64,000 bases of DNA from Candidatus Daviesbacteria bacterium (GTDB lineage Bacteria; Patescibacteriota; Microgenomatia; Daviesbacterales; UBA10151). The notes beneath the pieces were generated by a model that was not told where the DNA came from, searched no databases, and worked only from the letters and a program-made list of their open reading frames with translations. Below, in pieces: positions 28,421-58,794 of this stretch (its first letter is position 1; each line of letters begins with the position of its first letter). Position numbers and translations under genes: made by a program. The DNA is taken from contig JACOXI010000003.1 of assembly GCA_016176335.1 (NCBI GenBank), forward strand, positions 386,477-450,476, given 5' to 3'.

Positions 28421-28452
28421 ACCGCAAATATTAATTGCTTTTATGCTAAATA

Positions 28453-29262: not shown

Positions 29263-30606
29263 ATGAGAGATAAACGCATCGCCATTTTTGGTATCGGGAG
29301 GATTGGGTTACCTCTCGCCTTAATACTAGCTGATAAAGGATTTCAAGTCACAGGGGTAGATGTGGATCCCTATAGAATTTCCTTACTGCGGCATAAGATA
29401 ATGCCGTTTACGGAAGAGGGAGCACAATCCCTCTTGGATAAACATAGTGGTAAAAAATTTCAGGTTTTTTCTCAGGAGCATGTTGATAGGATAGTAGTAG
29501 AAAATGAGATAATTATTTTTACTCTAGGTACTCCTATTGATGAAACATATAGCCCTAATTTTTCCGACATAGAAAAACTGATTAGAAAAATAGCACCAGT
29601 CATGAAACCCGGACATTTGATTATCTTAAGAAGTACAGTTTTCCCGGGAGCAACTGAACAGTTGGCAAGGCAGCTTGAAGAGCAAACGAAACTATCAATA
29701 GGAGATAATCTTTTTTTGGCATATTGCCCCGAAAGGATAGCAGAAGGGAAATCTATAGAGGAACTAACTCAAATTCCACAAATAATTGGTACCATAGACG
29801 AAATAAGCGCAGAAAAGGCAGCTAAAGTTTTTGAAAAAATTGCTCCGAAACTTTTATTTACAAATCCCAAATCAGCAGAACTGGCAAAGTTATTTTGTAA
29901 TATGTATAGGTATATTGATTTTGCGATTGGAAATGAATTTATGATGATAGCTGAAAGCTATGGGTGTAATATTTATGAGGTGTTGCATCTTGTGAATGAT
30001 AACTATAAAAGAGGTAATTTAAAATCCCCAGGTTTTACTGCCGGACCCTGTTTAGTTAAGGATGGATTTTTCCTGATAGATAAAAGCCCGTATATGGAAC
30101 TTGTGACAGCTGCCTGGAGATTAAATGAGAATGTTCCTGGTTATCTTTTATCAAGAGTGAAAGCAGAAATAAAGGATTTGCATAGAAAAAAGGTAGCAAT
30201 TTTAGGCTTGTCTTTTAAGAAGAATATAGACGACACAAGACACTCTCTTTCTCCAAAGTTGGAGCGTTACTTTTTGGCAGAAGGTGCCAAAGTGTCCCTA
30301 TACGATCCTTTTATTGACTCTCAACCTCTGGAAGATGTAATTAAAGATGCTGATATTTTAATTTTGGCGATTAACCACGATGTTTTTAAGAGTTTAAACT
30401 TTCAATATTTAGGCAATTTAGTATCTGAAGGCTGTTTAATATTTGATATCTGGAACATGTTTGGTACCGGAAAAATCCTCTTTTATCTAAAAGATGTCAT
30501 AGATAGTAATAAGTCTGTGACCACTGGCAATGGAGAAATAAAAAAATCTAATAGAAAGCACACAAGGCGTACACTCCAGCGTAGAGTATCTCTTTCCACT
30601 ACATGA
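29263..30606 (+). CDS. Nucleotide-sugar 6-dehydrogenase (UDP-glucose/GDP-mannose/UDP-ManNAc dehydrogenase family)
   Basis: RIAIFGIGRIGLPLALILADKGFQVTGVDVD (N-terminal NAD-binding) and catalytic FTAGPCLVKD (GGxCxxKD-like). The preferred start is the ATG at 29263, after GAGGTG; the track start at 29209 is a TTG. Confidence 0.7.
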   Translation: MRDKRIAIFGIGRIGLPLALILADKGFQVTGVDVDPYRISLLRHKIMPFTEEGAQSLLDKHSGKKFQVFSQEHVDRIVVENEIIIFTLGTPIDETYSPNFSDIEKLIRKIAPVMKPGHLIILRSTVFPGATEQLARQLEEQTKLSIGDNLFLAYCPERIAEGKSIEELTQIPQIIGTIDEISAEKAAKVFEKIAPKLLFTNPKSAELAKLFCNMYRYIDFAIGNEFMMIAESYGCNIYEVLHLVNDNYKRGNLKSPGFTAGPCLVKDGFFLIDKSPYMELVTAAWRLNENVPGYLLSRVKAEIKDLHRKKVAILGLSFKKNIDDTRHSLSPKLERYFLAEGAKVSLYDPFIDSQPLEDVIKDADILILAINHDVFKSLNFQYLGNLVSEGCLIFDIWNMFGTGKILFYLKDVIDSNKSVTTGNGEIKKSNRKHTRRTLQRRVSLSTT

Positions 30607-41862: not shown

Positions 41863-42416
41863 TTTTGAATAAGAAATGCTATATGGGAGAAAGGGTACCA
41901 AAAGGGTTTCCTCATTACTTTTACTTCTAATTTTACATGAAGCTTTTTAAAAAGACTCTTCCATTCTGACAAATCCCTGAAAGATAAAGGTGTGCTTAGA
42001 TCTCCATAATGAAATTTATTAAGGGTAGCATCACTAATTTTTGCCACAAGACTCGGTTTCATTTCAAATATTAGTACTTTTTTGGCAACTCTTAAAGCAT
42101 CCTTTATAAGATTTTCTTGATTTTCTTTTGGAATATGATGGAGTACATCGTTTAATAAGGCCGTATCAAATTTACGTTTAAACTTTGGTAATTTGTCACT
42201 GGCCATTTTTTTAAAAGGAATATCATTATAAATCAAGTAATTTTTTATATCACACGCTTGTAGTTGTAATGAATAATGATGCCTTAATAGTTTTGTAATA
42301 GTTCCCCTACCGCAACCAATATCTAACACTCTTTCATTTTCTTTGAGCCATTTATCATAGGCTGTGGTCATCAGACGGAAGCGATAGGATGATGTTTTTT
42401 GGAAGATATTCATCAC
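41859..42416 (-). CDS. Class I SAM-dependent methyltransferase
   Basis: VLDIGCGRGTITKLL (motif I) and LLNDVLHHI. Confidence 0.7.
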   Translation of the reverse strand: MMNIFQKTSSYRFRLMTTAYDKWLKENERVLDIGCGRGTITKLLRHHYSLQLQACDIKNYLIYNDIPFKKMASDKLPKFKRKFDTALLNDVLHHIPKENQENLIKDALRVAKKVLIFEMKPSLVAKISDATLNKFHYGDLSTPLSFRDLSEWKSLFKKLHVKLEVKVMRKPFWYPFSHIAFLIQK

Positions 42417-43998: not shown

Positions 43999-44856
43999 AT
44001 GAGCAATGCAACAGGGAAGGCGCTTGTTTCCATCATAATTCCTGCATTTAATGAGGAGAGAATTATCGGTAAGTGTCTGGAATCTGTTGCCAGACAGAGT
44101 TTTAAAAACATAGAAGTTGTTTTGGTTGATGATTGCTCAAGTGATAATACTAATGCTGTAGTCCAAGATAAGATTAAAAAATTGAAGTTAAATCTTAATT
44201 TGATAAGTCTTAAGAGTCACCAGGAAAGAGGAAAAGTAAGAAACTTAGGCTCTAAAAAAGCGAAAGGAGAATACCTTTTATTTATTGATGCAGACATGAT
44301 ACTGACTAAAAAAGTTATTGCAGAATGCCTAACTAAAATTATGGGTAAACTGGATATAGGTGGGATTATTATTCCGGAGGAATCTAGGGGAGTTGGATTT
44401 TGGGCAAAGTGTCGGCGCTTAGAAAAAAAATGCTACCTCGGAGATGACAGTATAGAAGCTGCCAGATTTTTTAAAAAAAATGCTTTTTGGAAAGTTGGAG
44501 GTTGGGATGAAGAGATGATATCGGGAGAGGATTGGGATTTAACCAGAAGGATTAGAGAAAAGTATGAAGTTATAAGAGTCAATGCTGAAATTCTCCATGA
44601 CGAAGGCAAATTAACCCTTTGGATGGTCGCCAAAAAGAAATTTTATTATGCTTTCAAATCAGGGATATATCTTAAAAAATATCCTTTAAAAATAACGGAT
44701 TTATTTTTTTTCATTTTTAGACCTGCATATTTGAAAAATTGGAAATTGATTCTTTCAGATCCTACCCGCGGAGCAGGTATGTTTTTTTTGAAAGCTATTG
44801 AAATGTTTGCGGGAGGGATAGGGTACCTTTTTTCAAAGCTTCCAAATCTACCTTAA
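43999..44856 (+). CDS. GT2-family glycosyltransferase
   Basis: VSIIIPAFNEERIIGKCLESVARQSFKNIEVVLVDDCSSDNT, plus DADM. Confidence 0.75.
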   Translation: MSNATGKALVSIIIPAFNEERIIGKCLESVARQSFKNIEVVLVDDCSSDNTNAVVQDKIKKLKLNLNLISLKSHQERGKVRNLGSKKAKGEYLLFIDADMILTKKVIAECLTKIMGKLDIGGIIIPEESRGVGFWAKCRRLEKKCYLGDDSIEAARFFKKNAFWKVGGWDEEMISGEDWDLTRRIREKYEVIRVNAEILHDEGKLTLWMVAKKKFYYAFKSGIYLKKYPLKITDLFFFIFRPAYLKNWKLILSDPTRGAGMFFLKAIEMFAGGIGYLFSKLPNLP

Positions 44857-46738
44857 GCTTTTCTCGTACCTGTTCGGTAACGTTGTACATCTCTTTATTT
44901 TGTAGGGCAAATGCATGAATTCTGTCAATTGTTGTCGGAATTGGTTTACGGCCTTGTTTAATTAGGTATCTTCCATCATAAACAGAGGAAAGTATGCTTT
45001 CATATTCATTGACGACCATGAATGTGCTGTAATCCCAGTTTCTGGTATTGTAGAATATGGAGGCTCTTCCGTAGAAACCAAAACGTATTGCTTCAGCAAT
45101 TTCGGCACTTTGTTGGTCGGTCAGCAGCAAGAAAATATTCAACCCATCTCTATCGATTTTGGAGACTTCGGTTATGATTATATTCCAAAATTTGGTATCA
45201 ATTTGCTTACTTCTGTAAGTTGCAACATAGGTTAAATAATCGTTTGCAAACATAACGTGCATAAATATAAAAAGTACGATTAGCAAATAAGTGATTCCTA
45301 ATAAAAAAAATTTTCTTTTTTTATTTAAATAATCTATCGTAATAAACGAAACTACTGCCATCCAGATTGCGAGACCTGCTCCTTGTTGAACAGAATACCT
45401 TCCCCAGGTAAGTATGATTCCATATGGACTTATAATCCATGGAAACAGTATGAAAGTAAACATCCATCCCAGTCCTAACAAAAGCATTAGGGCAATAAGT
45501 GGTTTAGTATTTTTGAGTAAGAAAAATAACCATACGGAAAAAATAATAGTAAATCCGCCAACGAGAGCAAAGGCAACTCTCGGGTATGAAAAAGTGTTTA
45601 TATTAACTTTTTGAAGGAGATAGATAAATAATATCCAAAAACATAAATTTAAAATATACAAAAAAGAAACCTTTTTTTTAATTCTTGCGAAATAAAGAAC
45701 AATATATGTTAATCCACCGTATACCAGAGAAATGGGAAGTATATAAGAAAAGAAGGTGAAAGGGGGTCTCCAAAGTAGAGATATTTGTGAAAAAGGAATT
45801 TTGTTCCAAAGCATATCCGGCATAATATAATTTCCCAGTGTTGCAATTGGATCAATAATTAAATCCGACTGTCCGGCAATAAATTTTTGCCTTAAAAAGT
45901 CAATTCCTTCCAACGATCTTTGGGTATTCCACTCCCTTGCACCGTAGCCGTTGCCTATAAAGAAAGGCCCGATTTCAAAACCTTTTATTAAATGGTCTCT
46001 GATTAAAAAATACAAATCACTAACCCCGTATAGAATAATGTAGTTAGTAACGATAAGAATAAATATTCTTAGGGAAGCAATTTTCAGATTAAACTTTTTT
46101 CCGTCGATCAGCCACCAGCCCAGCTCTAAAATTAAAATAAGGGGTATCATTCCGTGCATTCTAGGGGGGGATACAACAAGAGCGCTCGCAAATAGCAAAG
46201 CAGAAATTATTAGTGGTTTGATTTTTAAAGTTTCTTTTGCTTTAAAGTACCAAACAAAGAATAATGTCAATATGCCGATACCTAATATATGGTTGTAATT
46301 GAAGGCCCAGTCCGTTGCCTCTATCCCCAAATAAGTTACCGCAAAAAAACAGCTTGCCAAAAAAGCTATCATAGTTTCCTCGGTAATCTTTTTGAGAAGA
46401 TAGAAAAGACTCAAAGCGACAAGTACTCTTGATATAAATGATGCGAGAAAATAATAAAATGGTTCATATCCAAAGACTCTACTGATGATGGAGAGGAAAA
46501 AATAATGAGGGCAGTATGTACAAAAATAAGTAAATGGGTTAAAGTAACTAGCCTCTTTTCTAATATCGAAGATTCCCCAAATAAGATAGTGTATCCCCCA
46601 ATCATCCCCTCCTAATGCTAAGTTGAAAGCGCCCCTTACAGTAATAAATGATAAAAAAGAGATAAAAATAATTAAGAGAACAAATGCACTGAAAGATTTT
46701 TTTCTGTAAGTTGTTTCTAGTTTCTGTTCTAATTGCAT
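44795..46738 (-). CDS. Polytopic membrane protein, GT-C-like candidate (GGDDW loop motif), paralog of ORF 40327
   Basis: 647 aa with about 14 TM. Contains a C7 tract on the coding strand (G7 on + at 46164-46170). Confidence 0.45.
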   Translation of the reverse strand: MQLEQKLETTYRKKSFSAFVLLIIFISFLSFITVRGAFNLALGGDDWGIHYLIWGIFDIRKEASYFNPFTYFCTYCPHYFFLSIISRVFGYEPFYYFLASFISRVLVALSLFYLLKKITEETMIAFLASCFFAVTYLGIEATDWAFNYNHILGIGILTLFFVWYFKAKETLKIKPLIISALLFASALVVSPPRMHGMIPLILILELGWWLIDGKKFNLKIASLRIFILIVTNYIILYGVSDLYFLIRDHLIKGFEIGPFFIGNGYGAREWNTQRSLEGIDFLRQKFIAGQSDLIIDPIATLGNYIMPDMLWNKIPFSQISLLWRPPFTFFSYILPISLVYGGLTYIVLYFARIKKKVSFLYILNLCFWILFIYLLQKVNINTFSYPRVAFALVGGFTIIFSVWLFFLLKNTKPLIALMLLLGLGWMFTFILFPWIISPYGIILTWGRYSVQQGAGLAIWMAVVSFITIDYLNKKRKFFLLGITYLLIVLFIFMHVMFANDYLTYVATYRSKQIDTKFWNIIITEVSKIDRDGLNIFLLLTDQQSAEIAEAIRFGFYGRASIFYNTRNWDYSTFMVVNEYESILSSVYDGRYLIKQGRKPIPTTIDRIHAFALQNKEMYNVTEQVREKLKVDLEALKKGTLSLPQTFQ

Positions 46739-47998: not shown

Positions 47999-48637
47999 AT
48001 GACAAATACATTCCCGCCCACATACAAATTAATACTCAAGCACCTGTTACCAAAAGGATTCCTAAAGGTTTTGGATTTAGGTTGTGGAGTTGGTGCTGCC
48101 GCAGAGGTTTTAAATAAGGGCAAGATCCATCAGTTTTTCGGTGTAGATATATACGAGCCTTATCTTAAGATATGCAGAAGGAGTGGGTTTTATAAAAAAG
48201 TTACAAAGGCTGATTTAAGAAATATAAATTTTAACAAAAAAAGCTTTGATGTGGTGATTTTATTTCAGGTGATAGAACACCTTAACAAAAAAGATGCAAA
48301 AAAACTCATCCGAAAAGCCGTGAGTGTTGCAACTAAGGCAGTGCTTATTTCCGTCCCAAATGGTCATTGTGATCAGGGAGTTTACGATGGAAATATTTAT
48401 AATAAACACAAATCAACATGGAATGCTGCGGATTTTAAAAAAATGGGCTTTAAAGTATATGGCCAAGGTTTAAAAATCATATACGGTTCTCGCAGTTACG
48501 AGGGTCGGATAGGGGCAAGCTGGTGGCAGAAAATAGTTGTCCCGCTTTCAATAATACTCCTTCCATTGGTGCTGATTTTTCCCGAGATTGCAGTGCAGCT
48601 GATAGGTGTAAAATATTTAGGAGGTGCAAGTAAATGA
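47999..48637 (+). CDS. Class I SAM-dependent methyltransferase
   Basis: VLDLGCGVGAAAEVL and ILFQVIEHL. Confidence 0.65.
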   Translation: MTNTFPPTYKLILKHLLPKGFLKVLDLGCGVGAAAEVLNKGKIHQFFGVDIYEPYLKICRRSGFYKKVTKADLRNINFNKKSFDVVILFQVIEHLNKKDAKKLIRKAVSVATKAVLISVPNGHCDQGVYDGNIYNKHKSTWNAADFKKMGFKVYGQGLKIIYGSRSYEGRIGASWWQKIVVPLSIILLPLVLIFPEIAVQLIGVKYLGGASK

Positions 48638-51600
48638 TGCATATTTTAAAAAAATTTGACACAAAAGTTATTTTCGTTCTTTTTTTCATTTCACTGTTTT
48701 TGGTTTTGATTTGGTTGCCGAACAATAAAATTATTGCCGGCGGAGATATAGGCATCCCAACTTATGCTCCTCAAAAACAACTTGAGGAGGTTACAAGTTC
48801 CTGGTGGGAATCTCACGCCACAGGAATCTCAAGCCCTGTAACTTATACCGCAGTACCCTTTTATTTAACCCTTTCGATACTGGAAAAACTGGGAATGGAT
48901 TCGGGCATGACTCAAAAAATAATCTTCTTTACCATTCTTTTTGGAAGTTCCTTAAGTATCTATTATTTGGGATTGAACTTTTCATTTAATAAATGGACGT
49001 CTCTTATTGCATGCTTGTTTTATATCTTTAATCTAACCTCCTTATCGGTTTGGCAAAGGGGAGTGCATAACGCCATGTTAATGCTTCTTTTGGTACCTCT
49101 TTCTCTTTTAATTTTGGTCTGGGGAATCAAAAATAAAAAATATGTTTCTATCTTAATAATAAATGTAGTTTCTTTTTTACTAGCCTATGTGTTTGGCGCA
49201 TTAGGTTTTCTGTTCTCTCTTTGGTTGCTCTGGACAGTTTACATAGCGGTAATATTGTTTGATTCTTGGAGTGATAAATTGGCAAGAAGATTTCTTTTAA
49301 CCTATTTTTTTCTATTGATAATTTCTTGGATTGGAAGTAATTTGTGGTGGATTACTAACCTTTTACAATCAAGCAATTATACCTTGGGTCAATTTACCCA
49401 AGGTGAACTAATGAGTAGAGGGTCGGATGTTTTAGCGGCTTTAAAGCCTTACCATGAGCCCTCAATTATATTACGGGGCTTAAGCAGATTTTATCTATAT
49501 GTTGTTCGTGACTGGGGGGAAATATATTCACACCCTCTTTTTATAATGCTTTCCTGGGTTCCCACACTGATAATCTTTTATACCGCCCTCATAAGAACCA
49601 ATTATAAGTTGACTCCTTGGAGATTTTTAATTGTATTGACTGTTTTAGTGCTGGCATTATCTAAAGGAGTGAACCCTCCTTTGGGAGAGTTAAACAGAAT
49701 TCCTTTTGATCTGTTTCAATTCCTTGCCCCGCTTCGAAACACATATGAGAAAGTGGGAATCCTTTTAACTATACCTTTCTCGTTGCTTTTTGCTTTAGGT
49801 ATTAATCAAATTATTTCAATCTTTAAAGCAAAAAAAATGGATTATCTACACTTACCACTACTAGTTGTAATCGTTATGTGTTTAATAGTTTTAGTCTGGC
49901 CGCTTTGGCTGGGTAAGTTATTTGTAAGCGAGGGAAGAAAGTATGCAGTTTCTATCCCGTCATATTATTCGCAGGCCAACAGTTGGATAAAAAGTAAAAT
50001 AGAAGCAGATGATACCAGAATTCTGCATCTTCCGTTATCTTGGGGTGAATCTATAGATTATAACTGGAATTATACAGGTGTCGAGCCAAGTCAATATTTT
50101 TTTAATGGATCATCCATCGGGTATCAAATCGGTGTACCTCCCGTCGACTCAAGAATAAGAGATATTCTACTGCTTATACATAAACAAGATACACTAAATA
50201 TTCAAAAAGCGCTTGTGTCATTAAATATTGGCTGGGTTGTTGTCCACAATGAAACATTGTTCAGAGACAGAATCTTAGAAAATCCAGAAAGAATTGATGC
50301 TTGGCTTGCCACCAAGCCACCATTTATAGAATACAAAACAGATTTTGGACCGCTTTCAATATGGAGGGTTAAAGATGAATATCGAGCAAGACATTTTTAT
50401 TCATCAGGTAAGTTAGTTCGTAGAGGTATACCCAATCCAACTTCTTCTTTAAATGTCTGGAATGAGATAAATAATTTAAATGATAGCTTCCTGACTGAAA
50501 TTCAAAAGGAACAAAGTTTGGATAAATTTATCTTTAAAAATACAATTATCCCGACAAGTAAAATAAAATATTCACCTTTAGGGTTGATAGATAAAGAAAC
50601 AGCGATAAATGATATCGCAAAAGTTGGTTTCCTGCCTGATTCACCCCTTTTTGTACTAACCCTGTTTAAGGAAAGTTTATTTTCCTTCTTAAATCAAAAC
50701 GATCGGGTCATAAACTGTTTTGATTTAAGCGGGAAGAGACTGAAAGAAGTTGTACTTTTAAAAAGAGGTCGGAGGTTGGAAGAAGCAGATAAAGCAATAA
50801 AAAGATATGAAAATCAGTTTAAAGAATGTATTAGTGTGGGGAAAGATACATTGAGCATTTATTTAAATACCCCCCAGGCGAGAGATTTAATTCTTAGTCA
50901 GCTAATCAGACAAAAAAACATTTTGGAAAATGAGTTTGACGAACAAAGCTTAAAGGAGGCTGTAAATCAAGTTAAAGATATTTTGAATGAATATCTTGCT
51001 AAGTTAGGCTTGGCACCAAAATATAATCCTGTCAAACAGAATTTAGGTAAGCAATTGATTGTTTTTGATTACCTTATTAACAAAAAAGGGGATTATTCAG
51101 TAGAGCTTAAGGAAGTAGACGAACAACTAATCAAAAATCCACCCCAAATTATTCAGATTGATAATAAAGCAGTTGATTTTTCCGCTGCAGAGGTTGGTGT
51201 AAATATCATTAGGTATCCGCAAATTAGACTGGATGAGGGGTTTCATGAAATCCAGCTGGAAACAGGTGAGGAGAAAAATATCCTAACTGATCTTTATGAT
51301 AACAAAAAACTACATCCGGATCCAGGGTTTACTTATCAAAAAGATCCGGAAAGTGGGGAAGGTTACTTCCGGGGGGCTCCCTCCAACGCAATAGTCAGTT
51401 TAATATTTGATATTCCAAATGTAAGTATTGAGGATATATATGAGGTGAGTTTTGATATTTATCATGTAGGTGGCACAGCACCTATGTTTATTATGACTCA
51501 TGATACTGACCCGACCGATTCCCATGGGTTAATAAAGCCCGCAGTCAGCAGAAATATTGATTTTAGTACTTATCCATCAGGATGGAGAAATGTGAAATTA

Positions 51601-52101
51601 AGTTACACCCCGGTATTAAATGCTACCTCTGCCAGAATGATTTTTATGTTATCCCCGCAAACGGGATTAAATAATCCCACAGAAGTATTATTAAAAAACA
51701 TCAGCATTAGAAAAGTTTTTCCTTATCAGCTGGTATTGGAGGAGGATAATCCATCTGTAATGCCACTGGGTACTGCCGAAATAAAATCTGTAAAGCTAAA
51801 TCCTACGGAGTACGAGATTAATTTAACAAATCAAAAATTACCGTATATCTTGATTTTTTCAGAAACTTTTCACCCACTTTGGCAAATAACAGATTCTTCC
51901 GGTAATAAAATAGATTTGCCTCATTTTAGCATCAATGGATTTGCAAACGGTTGGTTTGTTGATAAAGAGCTTGCTGACAGAATTAAGGTAAAGTTTATGC
52001 TTCAGAATGCCCTGACACAAGGTATTATTATCGCTGTTATATTTTTTATCTTTTCGTCTATTTTTCTTATCTATTTGGATCAACGAGGAAAAATAAAATG
52101 A
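48634..52101 (+). CDS. Giant (1155 aa) GT-C-like membrane protein with a long extracytoplasmic region and a YfhO/AftD-like C-terminal module
   Basis: The N-terminus has IAGGDIGIPTYAPQ... and there are more than 13 TM. The C-terminus has FHPLWQITDSSGNKIDLPHFSINGFANGWF plus a TM anchor. Paralogous in architecture to ORF 36764. ATGA overlap with the MTase. Confidence 0.55.
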   Translation: MMHILKKFDTKVIFVLFFISLFLVLIWLPNNKIIAGGDIGIPTYAPQKQLEEVTSSWWESHATGISSPVTYTAVPFYLTLSILEKLGMDSGMTQKIIFFTILFGSSLSIYYLGLNFSFNKWTSLIACLFYIFNLTSLSVWQRGVHNAMLMLLLVPLSLLILVWGIKNKKYVSILIINVVSFLLAYVFGALGFLFSLWLLWTVYIAVILFDSWSDKLARRFLLTYFFLLIISWIGSNLWWITNLLQSSNYTLGQFTQGELMSRGSDVLAALKPYHEPSIILRGLSRFYLYVVRDWGEIYSHPLFIMLSWVPTLIIFYTALIRTNYKLTPWRFLIVLTVLVLALSKGVNPPLGELNRIPFDLFQFLAPLRNTYEKVGILLTIPFSLLFALGINQIISIFKAKKMDYLHLPLLVVIVMCLIVLVWPLWLGKLFVSEGRKYAVSIPSYYSQANSWIKSKIEADDTRILHLPLSWGESIDYNWNYTGVEPSQYFFNGSSIGYQIGVPPVDSRIRDILLLIHKQDTLNIQKALVSLNIGWVVVHNETLFRDRILENPERIDAWLATKPPFIEYKTDFGPLSIWRVKDEYRARHFYSSGKLVRRGIPNPTSSLNVWNEINNLNDSFLTEIQKEQSLDKFIFKNTIIPTSKIKYSPLGLIDKETAINDIAKVGFLPDSPLFVLTLFKESLFSFLNQNDRVINCFDLSGKRLKEVVLLKRGRRLEEADKAIKRYENQFKECISVGKDTLSIYLNTPQARDLILSQLIRQKNILENEFDEQSLKEAVNQVKDILNEYLAKLGLAPKYNPVKQNLGKQLIVFDYLINKKGDYSVELKEVDEQLIKNPPQIIQIDNKAVDFSAAEVGVNIIRYPQIRLDEGFHEIQLETGEEKNILTDLYDNKKLHPDPGFTYQKDPESGEGYFRGAPSNAIVSLIFDIPNVSIEDIYEVSFDIYHVGGTAPMFIMTHDTDPTDSHGLIKPAVSRNIDFSTYPSGWRNVKLSYTPVLNATSARMIFMLSPQTGLNNPTEVLLKNISIRKVFPYQLVLEEDNPSVMPLGTAEIKSVKLNPTEYEINLTNQKLPYILIFSETFHPLWQITDSSGNKIDLPHFSINGFANGWFVDKELADRIKVKFMLQNALTQGIIIAVIFFIFSSIFLIYLDQRGKIK

Positions 52102-52406
52102 TTTTAATAGAATCGCTTGTAATTTTATTACCTATGATTGTCTTCTATATACTTGGTGCGCAAAATAAAAATCTGCACCCTGAATTTTTGATTAATTTTA
52201 TCTTCATAGTTTTATTTATTAGTTTGTTTATTTTTAGAAGCGGTAACATTCGTCATATGTATCTTGCCTTTGCACTACTCTTACTGGCAGTTTTTGCCAG
52301 TGTATTTGGACTGAATAATTTTCTCTATATTTCAAGCAGTTTGTCCTTAGGCTTATTAATACTTGGGATTATTAATATGTTGTTGTTTAAAAAAGAGGAG
52401 GCATGA
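52098..52406 (+). CDS. Small (102 aa) hydrophobic membrane protein of unknown function
   Basis: Three to four TM helices; ATGA overlaps on both sides. Confidence 0.4.
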   Translation: MILIESLVILLPMIVFYILGAQNKNLHPEFLINFIFIVLFISLFIFRSGNIRHMYLAFALLLLAVFASVFGLNNFLYISSSLSLGLLILGIINMLLFKKEEA

Positions 52407-54007
52407 GAAAAAATCTAGTTTCAGCAATTGTGGTAACAAGGAATAGAAAGCAAGATTTAATAAGATGTATAGGGTCTTTAAGTCATTCCGAATATAATCA
52501 ACTTGAAATGATTGTAGTTGATAACGCTTCCTTTGCCCCTGTTTCAACTTGGCTAAATAGGCAATACCCAAGAGTCAAAGTCATAACAAGCAATAAAAAT
52601 TTAGGGGCTGCCGGAGGGAGAAATTTAGGTTTTAAATTTGCAAAAGGGGAGACCTTTCTTTTTATGGATGATGATTCTTTAGCGGATAGAACAATGGTCG
52701 GTGAGCTTGCCAAAATACTCAAGGGTAGAAAAGATGTTGGAATTGTTCAGCCAAAAATTTACGACATGGAAAGAAAAAATGTGTTACAGGGAATCGGCTG
52801 TGACATTAATTTGCTCACAGGCAGAGTTTCTGCTGTAGGCATTAGAGAGAAAGATCTTGGACAATACGACAGGCTGATAGAAATTTCTGGAGTGGGCTGT
52901 ATTTGGATGGTCGAAAGAAAAGTAATTGAGAAAATTGGTGGATATGATGAAGACTACTTTATTCCATATGAGGATTTGGATTTTTCATTTAGAGCAAGAA
53001 TGGCTGGCTTTAAGATTTTATTTGTTCCTACTGCAAGAGCCTGGCATAAAGGAATAAAGTCAACGTTTATCAGTCCGCTTATTGATTATATTGGTATTAG
53101 AAATAAAGAAAGGGCATACAGAGTAAGTCGAAACAAGATAATTTTTATGAGAAAAAATGCACCTTTGTTAAATTTTCTAATTTTTATTTTTGTTATTAAT
53201 CCAATATATTTACTCGTTCATTCAATTTTAATTTCCTTAACCGGACGTTTTGACGTATTAGTAAAATACTGGTTGGGTTTTATATCGGGTATATGGTATG
53301 CAGTCAAATATGAAAATCTAATTCTTAAGCTTTACAATGATATAGATAAGCAACTAATAGGGTTCAAATATCATCTGATGGTTTGGACAGATCCTATCTG
53401 TTGGGTGATTGATAAATCCGCAAAGAACATTCTGGATGTTGGAAGCGGACTAGGTATACCGATGGAATTAATAAGAAGGAGAATGAAAGTTCAATATGCA
53501 GTTGGGATAGACAAATTTAGGCCGTATATAGATTATCTAAAAAGTAAGAAAGTACATGATAAGTATATTTTAGGAGATGTAAGAAAAATGAGATTTAGAG
53601 CAAAATCTTTTGATGTAGTTTTTGCATCAGATTTAATTGAACACTTGCCAAAAAAAGATTCATGGAAGTTGATAGAAAATATGGAGAGAATTGCTAAAAG
53701 ACAAGTAATTGTTACGACATCCTTAGGCTACTTTTTTCATCCGGCAGTTGATGGAAACCCACTTCAGTTACATAAATCGGGTTTTCACCCGCAGGAATTT
53801 GAAATAAAGGGATATAAGACTTTTAAGTACGGAAGAAAAGAAATACTCGGAACGAATGGATGGGTGCATACTATTAATTTCGATTCTTTAAAAAAGTTAT
53901 TATTTTTGGTTAATTCTTTATTTTTTCCACTTTTTATAATTTTTCCCAATTTCGGTAATTATTGCTTTATTGCTTACAAAAATACGGAAAATAATAAGTA
54001 TAATTAG
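52403..54007 (+). CDS. Fusion protein: N-terminal GT2 glycosyltransferase, central TM helices, C-terminal class I SAM methyltransferase
   Basis: N-terminus VSAIVVTRNRKQDLIRCIGSL...EMIVVDNAS...FMDDDS. C-terminal domain ILDVGSGLGIPMEL...VFASDLIEHL. Confidence 0.65.
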   Translation: MRKNLVSAIVVTRNRKQDLIRCIGSLSHSEYNQLEMIVVDNASFAPVSTWLNRQYPRVKVITSNKNLGAAGGRNLGFKFAKGETFLFMDDDSLADRTMVGELAKILKGRKDVGIVQPKIYDMERKNVLQGIGCDINLLTGRVSAVGIREKDLGQYDRLIEISGVGCIWMVERKVIEKIGGYDEDYFIPYEDLDFSFRARMAGFKILFVPTARAWHKGIKSTFISPLIDYIGIRNKERAYRVSRNKIIFMRKNAPLLNFLIFIFVINPIYLLVHSILISLTGRFDVLVKYWLGFISGIWYAVKYENLILKLYNDIDKQLIGFKYHLMVWTDPICWVIDKSAKNILDVGSGLGIPMELIRRRMKVQYAVGIDKFRPYIDYLKSKKVHDKYILGDVRKMRFRAKSFDVVFASDLIEHLPKKDSWKLIENMERIAKRQVIVTTSLGYFFHPAVDGNPLQLHKSGFHPQEFEIKGYKTFKYGRKEILGTNGWVHTINFDSLKKLLFLVNSLFFPLFIIFPNFGNYCFIAYKNTENNKYN

Positions 54008-54011
54008 ATTT

Positions 54012-55196
54012 ATGAAAAGGTTGGAAATATTTAAAATTTTTATAGTTTGGAGGGTGGTATTATTTGCAGTGTCAGCTTTGGCAATTCTTTTTATTACTGA
54101 TTTTGGAGTAAGGTTTCCTTATTATAATACGGTATTGGAGCCAACTGGACTACCTTCTTGGGTATGGGGCTTTGGAAATTTCGATGGGGTGCATTATTTA
54201 AGAATTGCTCAAGATAGTTACAGCGCGCAGTATTCGCAGGCTTTCTTTCCTTTGTACCCGTTACTCATAAGAATATTTACGGAAGCGAATATTCTTTTAC
54301 CCAAAGATCCCAATCTTGACACGCGAATTTATGTAGATCCAACCTTTTTCTATAGCGGATTGATACTTTCAAATCTAATTTTACTAATAGCTTTATATTT
54401 TTTTTACAAATTAGTTATCCTCGATTACAAAAAAGAGATTGGCCTAAAATCTATTATATTACTGCTTGCTTTTCCGACTGCTTTTTATTTCGGGTCGATA
54501 TATACCGAATCTTTGTTTTTGCTTCTTGTAGTTGGATTTTTCTATTTAATGAGAAAACAAAATTTTATTGCCGCAGGAGTATTGGCAGGATTAGCCTCCG
54601 CCACCAGAATTTTCGGACTTTTGCTTCTACCTGTGTTTCTTGCCGAACTATACTTAAAAATTAAGAATAAAGAGATATCGTTAAAAAGCGAACAATTTGT
54701 CAAAGCTCTGATTGGGATTTTACTTGCCCCTACGGGTATCCTGCTTTATATGCTTTATCTACGGTTTGAATTTGATAATCCCCTATATTTTTTAACTTCC
54801 CAGCCACTGTTTGGGGCAGAAAGGAGAAATGAAATTATTCTATTGCCGCAAGTTCTGTTCAGGTACATTAAGATTTTTTTAACTGTTTCCCCAATTTCAT
54901 TACCTTTTTTCAATGCTTTTTTAGAATTTTCTTTTACTCTGATAGCTTTAGGTCTATTGTTTGTTTCATTTAAGAAAATTAGATTCAGTTACTTTATATT
55001 CACTTTTGGTAGTTTGCTACTGCCAACACTTACAGGAACCCTCTCTTCGATGCCAAGGTATTCTTTAATGTCGTTTCTTATGCTCCCATTTTTAGTACGG
55101 TTTTCAGGAAGACATTTTAAATTAGTGGTGGTTTCGTTTATACTCTTACAAATGATCCTAGTTGGTCTTTTTACCAGAGGATATTGGGTGGCTTGA
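54012..55196 (+). CDS. PIG-V/GT76-like GT-C mannosyltransferase-family membrane protein
   Basis: FDGVHYLRIAQDSYSAQYSQAFFPLYPLL resembles the WDxxHxLxIAExGY...AFFPLxPL signature of PIG-V-type mannosyltransferases; more than 8 TM. The alternative start at 53970 lies within the previous gene. Confidence 0.5.
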   Translation: MKRLEIFKIFIVWRVVLFAVSALAILFITDFGVRFPYYNTVLEPTGLPSWVWGFGNFDGVHYLRIAQDSYSAQYSQAFFPLYPLLIRIFTEANILLPKDPNLDTRIYVDPTFFYSGLILSNLILLIALYFFYKLVILDYKKEIGLKSIILLLAFPTAFYFGSIYTESLFLLLVVGFFYLMRKQNFIAAGVLAGLASATRIFGLLLLPVFLAELYLKIKNKEISLKSEQFVKALIGILLAPTGILLYMLYLRFEFDNPLYFLTSQPLFGAERRNEIILLPQVLFRYIKIFLTVSPISLPFFNAFLEFSFTLIALGLLFVSFKKIRFSYFIFTFGSLLLPTLTGTLSSMPRYSLMSFLMLPFLVRFSGRHFKLVVVSFILLQMILVGLFTRGYWVA

Positions 55197-55198: not shown

Positions 55199-55858
55199 AT
55201 GAAAATATATTTAGTCATACCGGCATATAATGAAGCCAAAAGAATTGACAATTTGCTTGAAAGTCTTAAGGGGGTTAACCTTCCTGTCATTTTGGTTGAT
55301 GACGGATCTTTTGATAAAACTTTTCAGTTGGCAAAAAAATATCCGGTTACTGTTTTGCGGCACAAAGTAAATCTGGGAAAAGGTGCAGCGCTTAAAACCG
55401 GTTGCGAAGCGGCAATTCTGCTAGGTGCTAGTGCTGTAATTTTAATGGATTCTGATGGGCAGCATAAAGCTTCTGATTTGCCTAAGTTTGTTGGAAAAAT
55501 TAGCATGGAAACATATGATGTTGTTTTTGGTTCAAGGAATTTAAATATAGGAGTTCCTTTGGTGCGATATATTGGGAATAAAATAGAATCAGTATTAATC
55601 TCGTTATTATATGGAATCTATATTTCAGATCCGATATGTGGTTTCAGGGCAATGACTAAAAAAGCATACCAAAAAATGAAGTTGGAATCAGCGGGATATG
55701 ATATTGAAACAGAAATGGTGATTAAGACTAAACATTTTGGTTTCAAGTATTGTGAGGTGCCTGTGGAAACTGTATACTATGATAAGTTTAAAGGGGTGAC
55801 AATTTTGGATGCGTTGGGAATATTTACTAATATATTAAAATGGAAAATATTTAAATGA
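55199..55858 (+). CDS. GtrB/Dpm1-like GT2 polyprenol-phosphate sugar synthase
   Basis: IYLVIPAYNEAKRI...VILMDSDGQH...DPICGFRAMTKKAYQ...GYDIETEM. Confidence 0.7.
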   Translation: MKIYLVIPAYNEAKRIDNLLESLKGVNLPVILVDDGSFDKTFQLAKKYPVTVLRHKVNLGKGAALKTGCEAAILLGASAVILMDSDGQHKASDLPKFVGKISMETYDVVFGSRNLNIGVPLVRYIGNKIESVLISLLYGIYISDPICGFRAMTKKAYQKMKLESAGYDIETEMVIKTKHFGFKYCEVPVETVYYDKFKGVTILDALGIFTNILKWKIFK

Positions 55859-56211
55859 TCTTAGGACTACAAGTTATTGCTTTAGTATTTGCATTAGTAA
55901 TGATTTATTTTGCTTACCTTCATTATAGAAGGGGTGAAATCAACGGCTTGGAAATTTTATTTTGGCTTACTGCGTGGATGGGAGCAATATTTATAGCAAT
56001 ATTTCCTGAAGCTTTTCGTGCTTTCTCTGCAACAATTGCAGTTAATAGAGCCTTTGACCTTGCTATGATTGGAGCATTTATATTGGTTATTCCAACTGTT
56101 TATGTTTCATATATCAGAACAAAAAGAATAGAAAAGAAAATAGAAGATTTGGTAAGAAAGGAATCTTTAAAACCTTTGGATGAGCTACAGAAAAACAGAA
56201 AGTCTACCTAA
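55855..56211 (+). CDS. DUF2304-like small membrane protein
   Basis: YLHYRRGEINGLEILFWLTAWMGAIFIAIFPEAF... then a charged C-terminal tail. This pattern accompanies GtrB-like GT2 genes. ATGA overlap upstream. Confidence 0.5.
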   Translation: MILGLQVIALVFALVMIYFAYLHYRRGEINGLEILFWLTAWMGAIFIAIFPEAFRAFSATIAVNRAFDLAMIGAFILVIPTVYVSYIRTKRIEKKIEDLVRKESLKPLDELQKNRKST

Positions 56212-56980
56212 GATTTCAATTGTGATCCCCTCCTATAATAAAGCCTCTTATATAGAGGCTACTTTGAGCTCGATAATAAATCAAGGGTACCCAAATCTGG
56301 AAGTTATTATTCAGGATGGCGGATCAAAAGATGGGACTGCAGAGATAATAAAACGATATGCGAAAAAGTATCCAGAAATTTTTCGATGGTCTTCAAAAAA
56401 GGATAAGGGCCAATTGGATGCAATAAATAAAGGGCTTGAAAAATCAAGCGGTGAAATATTGACATACATTAATGCCGATGATGTTTATAAAGATGGCTCG
56501 TTGTTAGAAATAGGCAGATATTTCCAGAAGAATACAAGTACTCTTTGGGTGACAGGCTATGGAGATATTATAGACAAAGATGGGAAAATTATTTCTCGAT
56601 TTGTGACCAGTTATAAAAATACCCTTCTTGATATTAATAAATTCTTTCTACTTATTATTGTTAATTTTATTACTCAACCTTCAACATTTCTAAGCAGAAA
56701 AGCATATCTGCAATTTGGACCTTTTACAGGTACAAGAAATTATGTAATGGAATATAATTTATGGCTGAAAATAGGAAAGTCTAAGATGCCTTATATAATC
56801 AAAAAAACTTTATCCAGTTTTAGGTTAACTGCTGACAATATTTCTTCTACCTCAGCAAAGGAACTATTAAAAGTGGACAATAAAATTACAAAAAAATATA
56901 CCAACAACGGTTTACTTTTTGCTTTACATAAGCTTCATAATCTTGGTAGAATTTTCATGTTAAAATTTTTAAAAAAATGA
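56180..56980 (+). CDS. GT2-family glycosyltransferase (paralog of ORF 62245)
   Basis: LPKISIVIPSYNKASYIEATLSSIINQGYPNLEVIIQDGGSKDGT...KDKGQLDAINKG...NADDVY. Confidence 0.7.
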   Translation: MSYRKTESLPKISIVIPSYNKASYIEATLSSIINQGYPNLEVIIQDGGSKDGTAEIIKRYAKKYPEIFRWSSKKDKGQLDAINKGLEKSSGEILTYINADDVYKDGSLLEIGRYFQKNTSTLWVTGYGDIIDKDGKIISRFVTSYKNTLLDINKFFLLIIVNFITQPSTFLSRKAYLQFGPFTGTRNYVMEYNLWLKIGKSKMPYIIKKTLSSFRLTADNISSTSAKELLKVDNKITKKYTNNGLLFALHKLHNLGRIFMLKFLKK

Positions 56981-57840
56981 GAAGTAAACAAAATCGGGAG
57001 GTTTTGCAGTTAGAATTAAAAGCCACAGAACTGCGCAAGCAAATTTTAGAGATGATTGTTACAGCTCGTGGAACACATATTGCCAGTGCATTTTCAATAG
57101 TTGAGTTAGTACTGTATCTTTACAAGAACGTTTTACGTATTGACCCAAAAAATCCAAATGAAGAAAAAAGAGATAAATTTGTCCTAAGCAAAGGACATGG
57201 TTGTGCCGCACTGTACGTTGTTTTAGCTGACCTTGGTTTTTTCCCAAAAAAACTCCTCAATACATTTACTTCTTTTGGTAGTATCTTGGGAGGACATCCA
57301 GATAGATCAAAAATACCAGGAGTTGAAGTTTCAACCGGGTCCTTGGGTCATGGGTTTTCTGTAGCGGTCGGATTTGCCCTGGCAAATAAAATGAATCACT
57401 CTAAATATCGGGTTTACTGTCTTGTTGGCGATGAAGAATTAAATGAAGGAAGTAATTGGGAAGCAGCCCAGATAGCAGCACATCACAAATTGGATAATCT
57501 ATCGTTAATAATTGATGAAAACAAGCTTATGATAAGTGGCTTTATGAAGGATATTTTAGATTCCTTTTCACTTAAAGAAAAATTTCGTGCCTTCGGATGG
57601 AACACGATCGAAGTTAATGGGCATAATTTCTCTGATTTAAGCGAAAAATTCAAACTAGCGCCAATTAAAAATGGTAAGCCGATAGTCATGATCGCTGATA
57701 CTATAAAGGGGAAAGGGGTAAGTTTTATGGAAAATAAAAAAGAGTGGTATAGTGTTCTTCCAGACGAAGAACAAATGGATGTAGCAGTAGAAGAGTTAAA
57801 CAGCAATATTGAAAAGCTAAGAGAACAGCTGGAAATATAA
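56977..57840 (+). CDS. Transketolase, N-terminal (TPP-binding) subunit
   Basis: SKGHGCAALYVVLADLGFF...GSLGHGFSVAVGFALA...CLVGDEELNEGSNWEAAQIAAHHKLDNLSLIIDENK. ATGA overlap with the GT2 upstream. Confidence 0.85.
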   Translation: MRSKQNREVLQLELKATELRKQILEMIVTARGTHIASAFSIVELVLYLYKNVLRIDPKNPNEEKRDKFVLSKGHGCAALYVVLADLGFFPKKLLNTFTSFGSILGGHPDRSKIPGVEVSTGSLGHGFSVAVGFALANKMNHSKYRVYCLVGDEELNEGSNWEAAQIAAHHKLDNLSLIIDENKLMISGFMKDILDSFSLKEKFRAFGWNTIEVNGHNFSDLSEKFKLAPIKNGKPIVMIADTIKGKGVSFMENKKEWYSVLPDEEQMDVAVEELNSNIEKLREQLEI

Positions 57841-57870: not shown

Positions 57871-58794
57871 ATGAGAGATTCATATGTAAGTGCCATATAC
57901 AATGCAACTAAAATCAACAGTAATGTACTTTGTATTGTTGGTGATATCGGCTCTTTTCTGCTCCGACATTATATTGAAGACTTTCCTGCAAATTATCTTA
58001 ATCTAGGGGCGGCTGAAGCCAACATGGTAGGAGTAGCTGCTGGGCTTGCCATGTCTGGAAAAATTCCCTTTGTATATACAATAACTCCGTTTATTACAGC
58101 TAGATGTTATGAACAGATCAAGCTTGATGTTTGCCATAATAGGGCAAACGTAAAACTTGTTGGAGTTGGAAGTGGCGTTTCCTATGGAACAATGGGATCG
58201 ACCCATCATTCTCTCGAAGACATTGCAATTATGAGAGTTCTTCCAAACATGACAATTTTTTCTCCCTCGAATAAGCAGGAGGTTGAAGAGGCGGTATTTG
58301 CTGCCATGAAACTCAAAGATCCTGTGTACATAAGGTTAACGTTGACTGCGAATTCGACTGATAAATATAGAGGTAAGTTTGAAATTGGAAAGGCTCGCAT
58401 TGTTCGAAAAGGACAAAATGCTGCAATTATGGCCACCGGCGATATGGTAAGCATTGCAATTAATGCGGCGAAAGCTCTAGAAAAAAATAATATTAATTGT
58501 TTTGTAATTGACTTTCCTACTTTAAAGCCGATCGATGAGTCTTTAATAAAGAAGTTATCTGAAAAGTGCAAGGCAATTATTTCTATAGAAGAGCACAGTG
58601 TAGTTGGGGGATTAGGCAGTACCATTGGTTCTGTACTATCGCAGTATCCAAATAACAAGACTTGCTTCAAAATACTTGGATTTAATGATGTTTTCTGTGG
58701 CGAATACTCCAGCGATAAATTAAAGTTATTTGAAGAATATGGTCTTTCAACAAGAAACCTCGTAAAAACAATGCTTGACCTTTTCAATTCATGA
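57871..58794 (+). CDS. Transketolase, C-terminal (pyrimidine-binding) subunit
   Basis: LGAAEANMVGVAAGLAMSGKIPFVYTITPFI...YGTMGSTHHSLEDIAIMRVLPNMTIFSPSN. Confidence 0.85.
   Translation: MRDSYVSAIYNATKINSNVLCIVGDIGSFLLRHYIEDFPANYLNLGAAEANMVGVAAGLAMSGKIPFVYTITPFITARCYEQIKLDVCHNRANVKLVGVGSGVSYGTMGSTHHSLEDIAIMRVLPNMTIFSPSNKQEVEEAVFAAMKLKDPVYIRLTLTANSTDKYRGKFEIGKARIVRKGQNAAIMATGDMVSIAINAAKALEKNNINCFVIDFPTLKPIDESLIKKLSEKCKAIISIEEHSVVGGLGSTIGSVLSQYPNNKTCFKILGFNDVFCGEYSSDKLKLFEEYGLSTRNLVKTMLDLFNS

Follow-up and report, generated by a model that had tools for sequence, protein, structure and literature searches.

Two overlapping genes on the forward strand of the window (the whole 64,000-nt stretch of Candidatus Daviesbacteria DNA that was analysed), located at 55199-55858 and 55855-56211, very probably encode the two subunits of a polyprenyl-phosphate sugar synthase of the GacI/GacJ type, the type represented also by WpsA/WpsB and PpgS/Rv3632. 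The first gene encodes a family 2 glycosyltransferase (GT2) of 219 aa, o55199, as the putative catalytic subunit, and the second encodes a small membrane protein of 118 aa from the DUF2304 family, to which GacJ, WpsB and Rv3632 belong. The ATG start codon of the latter (55855-55857) overlaps the TGA stop codon of the former (55856-55858) in the sequence ATGA. A previous sequence-only reading of the window had given these coordinates, the GT2 and DUF2304 calls and the ATGA overlap, and our Pfam searches and inspection of sequence positions confirmed them. The pairing of a GT2 with a DUF2304 protein, which that reading took as an open question, is already published: in GacI/GacJ, WpsA/WpsB, EpaI/EpaJ and PpgS/Rv3632, a polyprenyl-phosphate HexNAc synthase is bound and stimulated by its DUF2304 partner and acts together with a Wzx flippase and a GT-C glycosyltransferase.

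The catalytic GT2 subunit

The product of o55199 matched PF00535 with 88.9 bits, and its best NCBIfam model was PpgS (NF058614), to which it aligned over the full length with 115.1 bits. Because this score lies far under the equivalog cut-off of 370 bits, no sugar was assigned to o55199. In the PDB, the best match was P. furiosus DPMS (PfDPMS, 5mlz) with 71.7 bits (query 1-216 versus chain 23-250), followed by ArnC and GtrB. PfDPMS was also the best relative, again ahead of GtrB and ArnC, of two other GT2 proteins encoded in the window, o28453 (28453-29166, reverse strand) and o25469 (25469-26290, forward strand), and the GtrB alignments ended inside the catalytic domain. These results agree with the sequence-only reading insofar as all three ORFs encode GT2 proteins with a likeness to Dpm1.

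The DSDGQ sequence of o55199 aligns with DADLQ of both PfDPMS and GtrB, and D[SA]DxQ occurs in every one of 120 o55199 homologues. The DxDxQ motif, which has been proposed as a hallmark of polyisoprenyl-phosphate glycosyltransferases (PMC10821137), was found in two of the 13 GT2 domains of the window, namely those of o55199 and o28453. A DxD core had been ascribed to all three proteins; it is present in these two, whereas o25469 carries DSGMD at the aligned position. The other motif ascribed to them, [DQ]xxGFRxF[RK][RK], matched no ORF of the window in its literal form. A loosened pattern, D-x3-G-[FI]-[RKF]-x-[FML]-[RKT]-[KR], fits the three GT2 proteins, but it was derived from them.

The alignments with DPMS go beyond the nucleotide-binding half of the catalytic domain and cover its C-terminal half as well, whereas the control GT2 o56180 had chondroitin synthase as its best PDB match and DPMS only in 17th place, weakly and at the N-terminus. 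Together with the DxDxQ motif, which sets o55199 and o28453 apart from the other GT2 domains of the window, and with the experimentally studied homologues that have DUF2304 partners, all of them polyprenyl-phosphate glycosyltransferases, these results make it improbable that the three proteins are ordinary GT2s working on soluble or lipid-pyrophosphate-linked acceptors, with a DPMS likeness that reflects the shared GT-A fold alone. Such a reading would accommodate the NCBIfam matches, every one of which lies far under its equivalog cut-off, and the lack of DxDxQ in o25469, whose AF2 model (pLDDT 56, from a shallow alignment with 74-81% identity) is too poor for a test of the fold.

A Kyte-Doolittle scan with a 19-residue window and a mean of at least 1.6 detected no transmembrane (TM) segment in o55199, o28453 or o25469. 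As to an amphipathic C-terminal helix, the hydrophobic moment singled out neither o55199 nor the three synthases as a group against control GT2s. The sequence-only reading had tied synthase function to a C-terminal TM region, and in the literal sense all three proteins lack one; this does not refute the function, since GacI, WpsA and PpgS are also devoid of such a region. It does count against that part of the reading which placed the three enzymes in the GtrB/CsbB type.

The small DUF2304 subunit

The DUF2304 assignment, also made by the sequence-only reading, is well founded: PF10066 was the sole Pfam match of the small protein, with 65.5 bits against a gathering threshold of 25.5 and with 102 of the 106 model positions covered. 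An AF2 model with a pLDDT of 94 showed helices at residues 2-25, 31-49, 51-60 and 66-117, for which the model suggests a layout of three TM helices and one short interfacial helix, with a charged C-terminal helix in the cytoplasm. According to the positive-inside rule, the N-terminus is predicted to lie outside the cell. A search for relatives yielded 1040 DUF2304 cluster representatives at E<=1e-3. Among 139 diverse members, residues Y18, W37, W41, P51, R65 and D68 are conserved in at least 90% and sit in or at the edge of the three TM helices, and R101 reaches at least 90% in a diverse subset of 39 sequences. The published model of WpsB has the same layout, in which a helical hairpin precedes one short and one long helix, with residues 93-115 in contact with WpsA (PMC10821137), and R101 lies in the segment that matches these residues.

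The alignment of o55199 stops just before the TM domain of PfDPMS, and the DUF2304 protein was therefore considered as a detached TM domain of a DPMS/GtrB-like enzyme. Sequence and profile comparisons of the DUF2304 protein with the PDB gave no credible match, and a Foldseek search with the AF2 model gave a best E-value of 1.8. In natural fusions the GacJ part is N-terminal, and the only active fusion is WpsB-WpsA (PMC10821137). The idea was ruled out on the basis of these search results, the fusion order and the predicted outside location of the N-terminus; no fold or sequence similarity of DUF2304 to any solved chain, the DPMS TM domain included, could be detected.

Conserved gene order and the fate of the lipid-linked sugar

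The gene order was compared at 12 informative loci, comprising eight close Daviesbacteria-type loci and four distant DUF2304 representatives, with two overly short contigs left out. A GT2 gene followed by a DUF2304 gene was found at all 12, and in all eight Daviesbacteria-type loci the GT2 stop lies 4 nt inside the DUF2304 start. At the distant loci (28-39% identity, GC 34-56%), a GT2 gene for 217-226 aa stands directly 5′ in four of four, and the window ORF closest to its product is o55199.

This adjacency, together with the 4-nt overlap that all eight close relatives retain, is not incidental, and it argues against the view that the three GT2s are stand-alone synthases of the GtrB/CsbB type, belonging to GtrA/GtrB/GtrC or CsbB/GtcA/YfhO systems, with DUF2304 as an incidental or accessory neighbour. 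GtrB and CsbB possess C-terminal TM helices of their own and work with flippases of the GtrA/GtcA family. None of the three window enzymes has a TM helix, and no match to GtrA (PF04138), GtcA or YfhO (PF09586) was found among the 52 ORFs scanned. In favour of that view, each of the three GT2s has GtrB (sll0501) and ArnC among its best-ranking solved relatives and the window is rich in GT-C genes, but membership in the GtrB/CsbB type is largely refuted, and we consider that view highly unlikely. Separately, a 102-aa ORF with four TM segments (52098-52406) was weighed as a possible flippase of the GtrA/ArnE kind and dropped, as it had no match in Pfam, even at E<=1, or in NCBIfam.

Directly upstream of o55199 is a gene for a PIG-V/GT87-like GT-C membrane glycosyltransferase (54012-55196, forward strand), which matched PF04188 (Mannosyl_trans2) with 45.9 bits (cut-off 22.4) and GT87 with 23 bits and has about 10 or more hydrophobic segments. 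The gene was also called from 54012 in an independent contig (394 aa); the ORF can be extended to a TTG at 53970, and its stop lies 2 nt ahead of the start of o55199. A PIG-V-like GT-C gene occupies the position directly 5′ in five of the eight close relatives and at one distant locus (L007, L009, L010, L011, L013 and L019 together). The gene 3′ of DUF2304 varies: it is of the o56180 type in the window, L007 and L010, of the o62245 type in L011, L013 and L014, and a GT4 in L017 and L018, while L008 and L009 have no glycosyltransferase there. In the window, o56180 (56180-56980, forward strand; PF00535, 103 bits) shares 32 nt with the 3′ end of the DUF2304 gene and encodes an ordinary cytoplasmic GT2 with NADDV, not DxDxQ, at the aligned position. 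Neither a Wzx nor a GtrA gene adjoins the trio of GT-C, GT2 and DUF2304 genes; the Wzx-like genes are 30-50 kb off, the nearest (about 30 kb) being coupled to another synthase.

By analogy with the published homologues, we propose that o55199, as a TM-less GT-A enzyme, would, on the cytoplasmic side of the membrane, load undecaprenyl phosphate with one sugar taken from an NDP-sugar, presumably a UDP-HexNAc, in a metal-dependent reaction via its DxDxQ motif (DSDGQ). The DUF2304 protein, whose translation is coupled to that of the GT2 and which has its N-terminus out and its C-terminus in, would form a complex with the GT2 by docking its charged cytoplasmic C-terminal helix on it, holding the active site at the membrane and raising the activity. 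The resulting sugar-phosphate-polyprenol would be moved across the membrane, presumably by a Wzx-type protein of the same island, and would be used outside by a GT-C, for which the PIG-V-like protein encoded 2 nt before the synthase is the best candidate. The three-component logic of the sequence-only reading survives here in that a lipid-phosphate-sugar would be made inside, flipped and used by GT-C enzymes; its models, GtrA/GtrB/GtrC and CsbB/GtcA/YfhO, do not.

With the same synthase chemistry and a difference solely in the fate of the product, the sugar-phosphate-polyprenol may instead, with an appreciable though minor probability, serve as a Wps-like primer. As the acceptor, it would be built up to an oligosaccharide by o56180 and perhaps by other cytoplasmic glycosyltransferases and methyltransferases, flipped by Wzx, and transferred or polymerised by a GT-C, as in the lactococcal pellicle polysaccharide. 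In Lactococcus, WpsC elongates the GlcNAc-P-C55 made by WpsA/WpsB and is a strain-variable glycosyltransferase encoded just after wpsB (PMC10821137). The window and its relatives resemble this arrangement in that a cytoplasmic-type glycosyltransferase of variable type overlaps or follows DUF2304; o56180, which its PDB ranking marks as an ordinary GT2 and which is located in a WpsC-like position, is the candidate elongating transferase, and the island is rich in further GT2 domains (10), with several GT4s and many methyltransferases. On the other side, L008 and L009 do without a glycosyltransferase after DUF2304, and the tightest conserved partner is the GT-C gene on the 5′ side, as would suit a GacL-like decoration with single sugars. 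A cytoplasmic GT2 gene after DUF2304 is in itself as compatible with use of the product as a primer as with its use as a donor.

Since the trio has no flippase gene next to it, the DUF2304 protein, with its near-invariant Y18, W37, W41, P51, R65 and D68, might itself translocate the lipid-linked sugar besides activating the synthase, a reading that we regard as quite unlikely. The trio would then be a self-contained three-gene module for surface glycosylation, and the Wzx-coupled, DUF2304-less o25469 enzyme with its conserved DxGMD would form a separate, undescribed subclass of the enzyme class.

Further synthases of the window and comparison with known systems

The second enzyme, o28453, is a protein of 237 aa whose best NCBIfam match was AglJ (TIGR04182, 117 bits), while a haloarchaeal Dol-P hexose transferase model aligned over its full length with 70.8 bits. 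Its PDB scores were 66.8 bits for PfDPMS (query 7-219 versus chain 25-235) and 35.8 bits for ArnC, and its DxDxQ motif reads DTDHQ. On the grounds of the DPMS-like full-length similarity and this motif, o28453 is predicted to belong to the class of polyisoprenyl-phosphate glycosyltransferases. No small ORF with TM segments lies next to it, and it has no DUF2304 partner. Co-transcribed with it on its 3′ side is an SDR epimerase/dehydratase gene (27422-28456, reverse strand; PF01370, 178.8 bits; GalE-like, 144 bits, below cut-off), whose product probably shapes the NDP-sugar of o28453. A divergent gene at 29209-30606 encodes a nucleotide-sugar dehydrogenase with UDP-ManNAc dehydrogenase as its best match (225 bits). 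The assignment of particular sugars from the adjoining SDR, dehydrogenase and transketolase genes was dropped, because all NCBIfam matches were under the equivalog cut-offs.

The third enzyme, o25469, is a DPMS/GtrB-like GT2 of 273 aa, and the NCBI annotation contains a 273-aa product with the same start. Its family profile matched PfDPMS with 63.9 bits (query 9-229 versus chain 22-236) and then GtrB with 51.5 bits. Among its homologues, D[AS]GMD replaces DxDxQ in 117 of 120 and DxGMD in 119 of 120. The start of o25469 overlaps the end of a gene for a candidate flippase of the Wzx/MOP type (24247-25524, forward strand; PF13440, 65.8 bits; PF01943, 52.8 bits; polytopic), and this Wzx-GT2 synteny is conserved in L021 and L022. 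In other Daviesbacteria, a cassette of a PIG-V-like GT-C, a Wzx and an o25469-type GT2 was found, and this context supports the polyisoprenyl-phosphate class for o25469. A second Wzx/MOP-type flippase candidate is encoded at 3330-4811 on the forward strand (PF13440, 184.6 bits; NCBIfam MOP flippase NF007773, 154.9 bits; O-glycosylation flippase, 110.5 bits; both NCBIfam scores under cut-off). The presence of Wzx-like flippases and many GT-C enzymes in the window had been noted by the sequence-only reading. Overall, the best explanation for o28453 and o25469 is that both belong to the enzyme class of o55199 as well and act with no DUF2304 partner, o25469 being paired with Wzx. Up to three different lipid-linked donors may feed the many GT-C paralogs, as that reading supposed, but only two of the three enzymes have the DxDxQ motif, and the lipid-linked sugar may also be a primer, as in Lactococcus, and not a direct donor.

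Two proteins of an uncultivated CPR bacterium, one labelled "DUF2304 domain-containing protein" and the other bearing the generic label "glycosyltransferase family 2 protein", receive here a specific function that can be tested, and the GacI/GacJ-type module would be extended well past the Firmicutes and Actinobacteria in which it has been studied. The synteny points to a portable cassette of GT-C, synthase and activator in Daviesbacteria. About 60 kb of a small Daviesbacteria genome appears to be given to surface glycans, which helps to interpret the variable surfaces of episymbiotic bacteria. The mechanism is not new, as the partnership, the biochemistry and a structural model have all been published.

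Among solved structures, PfDPMS (5mlz), GtrB (5ekp, sll0501) and ArnC are the closest relatives and share the GT-A domain with the window enzymes and the DxDxQ motif with two of the three, but they have TM helices of their own. In eukaryotes, DPM1/DPM2/DPM3 combine a TM-less catalytic subunit with small membrane subunits that hold it at the membrane; the design of the window pair is analogous, with no evident homology, the small protein matching PF10066 alone in Pfam. The likeness of the window pair to GacI/GacJ, WpsA/WpsB and Rv3632 runs via Pfam, NCBIfam and the literature. In M. tuberculosis, Rv3632 is a DUF2304 member that stimulates PpgS (Rv3631), the top NCBIfam model for o55199; at 115 bits against a cut-off of 370 the GalNAc specificity of PpgS is not transferable, and the window has no arabinogalactan context. 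The Lactococcus pair, in which WpsB activates the TM-less WpsA (PMC10821137), shares with the window pair a four-helix small subunit, the DxDxQ motif, DPMS as the closest structure and a variable glycosyltransferase gene after the small subunit, a likeness that covers the pair and the following glycosyltransferase and not the rest of the Wps machinery. In S. pyogenes, GacI makes GlcNAc-P-Und, and GacJ co-purifies with GacI and stimulates it (Rush et al., 2017, bioRxiv 10.1101/180810). The GacI/GacJ/GacK(Wzx)/GacL(GT-C) system resembles the window in its TM-less GT2, followed by a three-TM DUF2304 protein of about 113-118 aa, and in the presence of GT-C and Wzx-type genes in the locus. It differs in that the window lacks the rhamnan context, has the GT-C gene directly 5′ and the Wzx gene not adjacent, and comes from a member of the CPR (Candidatus Daviesbacteria) and not from a Firmicute. 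The pair would be a further member of the GacI/GacJ type, already characterised in streptococci, in a CPR host.

The GT2/DUF2304 pair

The sequence-only reading had placed a GT2 gene and a DUF2304-like gene in ATGA overlap, and its coordinates proved exact. ORF 55199-55858 encodes a 219-aa GT2 protein (PF00535, 88.9 bits), and ORF 55855-56211 (+) encodes a 118-aa protein assigned to Pfam DUF2304 (PF10066) with 65.5 bits (gathering score 25.5) and an alignment spanning 102 of the 106 model positions; NCBI already labels it DUF2304. The overlap reads ...AAATGATC..., with the ATG at 55855-57 and the TGA at 55856-58. The preceding GT-C gene stops at 55196, 2 nt ahead of the GT2 ATG, and the next GT2 gene begins at 56180, 32 nt within the DUF2304 gene; these spacings and overlaps therefore indicate one translationally coupled unit of four genes (53970/54012-56980). 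By every testable criterion, in family membership, motif, architecture and synteny, the 55199/DUF2304 pair belongs to the GacI/GacJ (WpsA/WpsB, PpgS/Rv3632) family.

The AlphaFold2 model of the DUF2304 protein (139 diverse sequences, pLDDT 94) contained helices at residues 2-25, 31-49, 51-60 and 66-117. Helices one, two and four are hydrophobic as far as residue ~88, beyond which lies a charged extension (89-117). Since positive charges follow TM1 and TM3, the positive-inside rule suggests an outside N-terminus and a cytoplasmic C-terminal helix, in agreement with the orientation of natural and engineered fusions. Y18, W37, W41, P51, R65 and D68 were at least 90% conserved over the 139 members, as was R101, located in the predicted contact helix, in a 39-sequence set. 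The family comprised 1040 cluster representatives at E<=1e-3, the best 150 of which were all stand-alone proteins of ~80-170 aa, mostly 106-125. Sequence, profile and fold searches of PDB chains returned no solved DUF2304 structure.

Three DPMS-like GT2 enzymes

Gene calls also supported 25469-26290 and 28453-29166 (-) as GT2 ORFs, proposed together with 55199 to be Dpm1/GtrB-like. For all three, the top match among all PDB chains was Pyrococcus furiosus dolichol-phosphate-mannose synthase (DPMS; 5mlz), at 71.7 bits for 55199, 66.8 bits for 28453 and 51.7 bits for 25469, with alignments covering nearly the whole catalytic domain, followed by GtrB (sll0501) and ArnC; the family profile of 25469 scored up to 63.9 bits with DPMS and 51.5 bits with GtrB. 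The control GT2 at 56180 had chondroitin synthase as its top match, and DPMS ranked 17th, aligning only to the N-terminal nucleotide-binding half. The nearest NCBIfam models, all far under their equivalog cut-offs, were PpgS for 55199 (115 bits, full length), and archaeal AglJ (117 bits) and Dol-P hexose transferase (70.8 bits) for 28453; 25469 had no clear nearest family in this search.

None of the three has a predicted TM helix. Because 55199 lacks TM helices, it is not a GtrB/CsbB-type enzyme, and no GtrA/GtcA or YfhO family member was found by Pfam among the 52 ORFs scanned in the window, which makes the proposed GtrA/GtrB/GtrC and CsbB/GtcA/YfhO models very unlikely.

DxDxQ has been proposed as a hallmark of polyisoprenyl-phosphate glycosyltransferases (PMC10821137). 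At the aligned position 55199 (DSDGQ) and 28453 (DTDHQ) carry this motif, and the window's remaining 11 GT2 domains do not; 25469 has DSGMD where the DxD core was expected. Of 120 close homologues, 117 retain D[AS]GMD (119 have DxGMD), so this is a conserved variant rather than decay. The motif originally put forward, [DQ]xxGFRxF[RK][RK], matched no ORF in the window; a loosened form, D-x3-G-[FI]-[RKF]-x-[FML]-[RKT]-[KR], fits the three proteins from which it was itself derived, and also the aligned DPMS segment DPVSGFFALRK.

Gene order, cassettes and the glycan island

A GT2 gene lay directly upstream of DUF2304 in 12/12 informative loci. In all eight Daviesbacteria-type genomes, the stop of the GT2 orthologue (61-72% identity) falls 4 nt into the DUF2304 gene. 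In all four distant loci (28-39% identity; G+C 34-56%) a same-strand GT2 of 217-226 aa precedes it, whose nearest window ORF is 55199, not 28453 or 25469. The gene immediately before the pair encodes a PIG-V-like GT-C in L007, L009, L010, L011, L013 and the distant L019; in L012 one gene separates the GT-C gene from the pair. Six of the source MAG records (L008-L012 and L014) are titled 'uncultured Gammaproteobacteria bacterium', which looks like a placeholder or mislabel, the loci showing the same synteny, low GC and 59-75% identical DUF2304 proteins.

No small membrane ORF was found beside 25469 or 28453. The Wzx-like gene upstream of 25469 ends within this ORF, and in other Daviesbacteria the order PIG-V-like GT-C, Wzx, 25469-like GT2 (L021 5001-5807; L022 5001-5810) makes a complete three-component cassette. 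Close homologues of 25469 are 75-82% identical, more strongly conserved than the DUF2304-partnered GT2. One and the same GT2-GT4-GT-C trio precedes Wzx and a 25469-type GT2 in some genomes, but a 55199-type GT2 and DUF2304 in others, so that the two look like interchangeable modules. 28453 is co-transcribed with a GalE-like SDR (27422-28456, -) and faces a nucleotide-sugar dehydrogenase (29209-30606) scoring best as UDP-ManNAc dehydrogenase, neighbours that hint at an oxidised or epimerised sugar without naming which. This context supports the earlier suggestion that the GT-C enzymes may draw on several lipid-linked sugars.

Proteins that match those of the window exactly or nearly are assigned by NCBI to Candidatus Daviesbacteria, a member of the CPR/Microgenomates. 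Nearly the entire window (G+C ~34%) is given over to glycan biosynthesis, with most genes on the + strand; this island contains 13 GT2 domains, several GT4 enzymes, many SAM-methyltransferases, nucleotide-sugar enzymes, two Wzx/MOP-type genes (3330-4811 and 24247-25524) and at least six GT-C proteins over the Pfam threshold (PMT_2/PMT type at 10261, 16134, 17577, 19212 and 20813; PIG-V type at 53970/54012-55196). Four PMT_2-type paralogues (10261-11940, 17577-19193, 19212-20816 and 20813-22429, +), three in tandem, are 30-34% identical, with another two, more divergent, at 14758 and 16134. Six polytopic membrane proteins of 524-1155 aa without a Pfam match (4808-8233, 8241-10259, 36764-39316, 48634-52101, 40327-41901 (-) and 44795-46738 (-)) form three paralogous pairs (26-33% identity), and may be unrecognised GT-C enzymes, given the weak BLAST similarity between the 40327/44795 pair and the PMT_2-type GT-C at 10261.

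ORF 52098-52406 (+; 102 aa, four predicted TM helices) overlaps both neighbours, had no Pfam or NCBIfam match, and resembles small lipid-sugar flippases in size and topology only; its counterpart (L008 2317-2655) is likewise kept beside a homologue of the 1155-aa membrane protein. ORF 52403-54007 (+) is a GT2-SAM-methyltransferase fusion in which each domain is followed by hydrophobic segments, its content being split over two ORFs in L008 (2648-4275). A split transketolase-like pair, with the N-terminal ThDP-binding half (56977-57840) preceding the pyrimidine-binding and C-terminal half (57871-58794, +), also occurs near the GT2-DUF2304 pair in L008 (6534-8317, -) and L009 (6552-8306, -), and may serve sugar modification (two-carbon transfer) instead of central metabolism.

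Proposed function and comparison with known pairs

Complex formation, stimulation, the lipid acceptor and the later use of the product are all extrapolated from homologues. By this analogy the 55199 enzyme would transfer a single sugar from an NDP-sugar to undecaprenyl phosphate on the cytoplasmic side of the membrane, and the DUF2304 protein would bind it through the cytoplasmic helix, position it and raise its activity. A HexNAc is the best guess for the sugar, at about even chances, since UDP-GlcNAc or UDP-GalNAc is the donor of every characterised synthase with a DUF2304 partner and PpgS is the closest model. After flipping, the product would serve a GT-C, for which the neighbouring PIG-V-like enzyme is the likeliest candidate. 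A serious alternative, differing in product fate and not in chemistry, is that the sugar-P-lipid is a primer for elongation, as is GlcNAc-P-C55 in Lactococcus, elongated by WpsC, a strain-variable GT encoded after wpsAB. Where a GT gene overlaps or follows DUF2304, its product is always of cytoplasmic type, but its kind differs between genomes (two GT2 types, GT4; window 56180-56980, L007 5326-6126, L011 5342-6154, L017 4330-5526, L018 4333-5448). This overlapping, variable GT mirrors the position of wpsC and fits the primer pattern equally well.

Each testable feature of the known pairs is reproduced by the window proteins. Streptococcus pyogenes GacI is a TM-less GT2 making GlcNAc-P-undecaprenol; the gene directly after it encodes GacJ, a DUF2304 protein of 113 aa with three TM helices, which purifies together with GacI in CHAPS and enhances GacI activity, and GacK (Wzx) and GacL (GT-C) complete the pathway (bioRxiv 10.1101/180810). 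Rv3632, the Mycobacterium tuberculosis DUF2304 protein, stimulates PpgS, a GalNAc-P-polyprenol synthase, and GacJ-GacI fusions exist in Geobacter and relatives. Lactococcal WpsA/WpsB act like GacI/GacJ: WpsA lacks a TM helix, most closely resembles DPMS and contains DxDxQ; WpsB, in an AlphaFold2 complex model, comprises a helical hairpin, a short helix set perpendicularly and a long helix that touches WpsA through residues 93-115; and the WpsB-WpsA fusion is active, whereas WpsA-WpsB is not (PMC10821137). Earlier publications thus already cover the GT2/DUF2304 pairing, with its biochemistry and a structural model, and the window pair is a further GacI/GacJ-type member in an unusual lineage. 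Three points go a little further than published work: the GT-C/GT2/DUF2304 trio is conserved with no flippase gene next to it, the DxGMD variant enzyme is coupled to Wzx, and the 25469-type and 55199-type cassettes appear to be swapped as modules.
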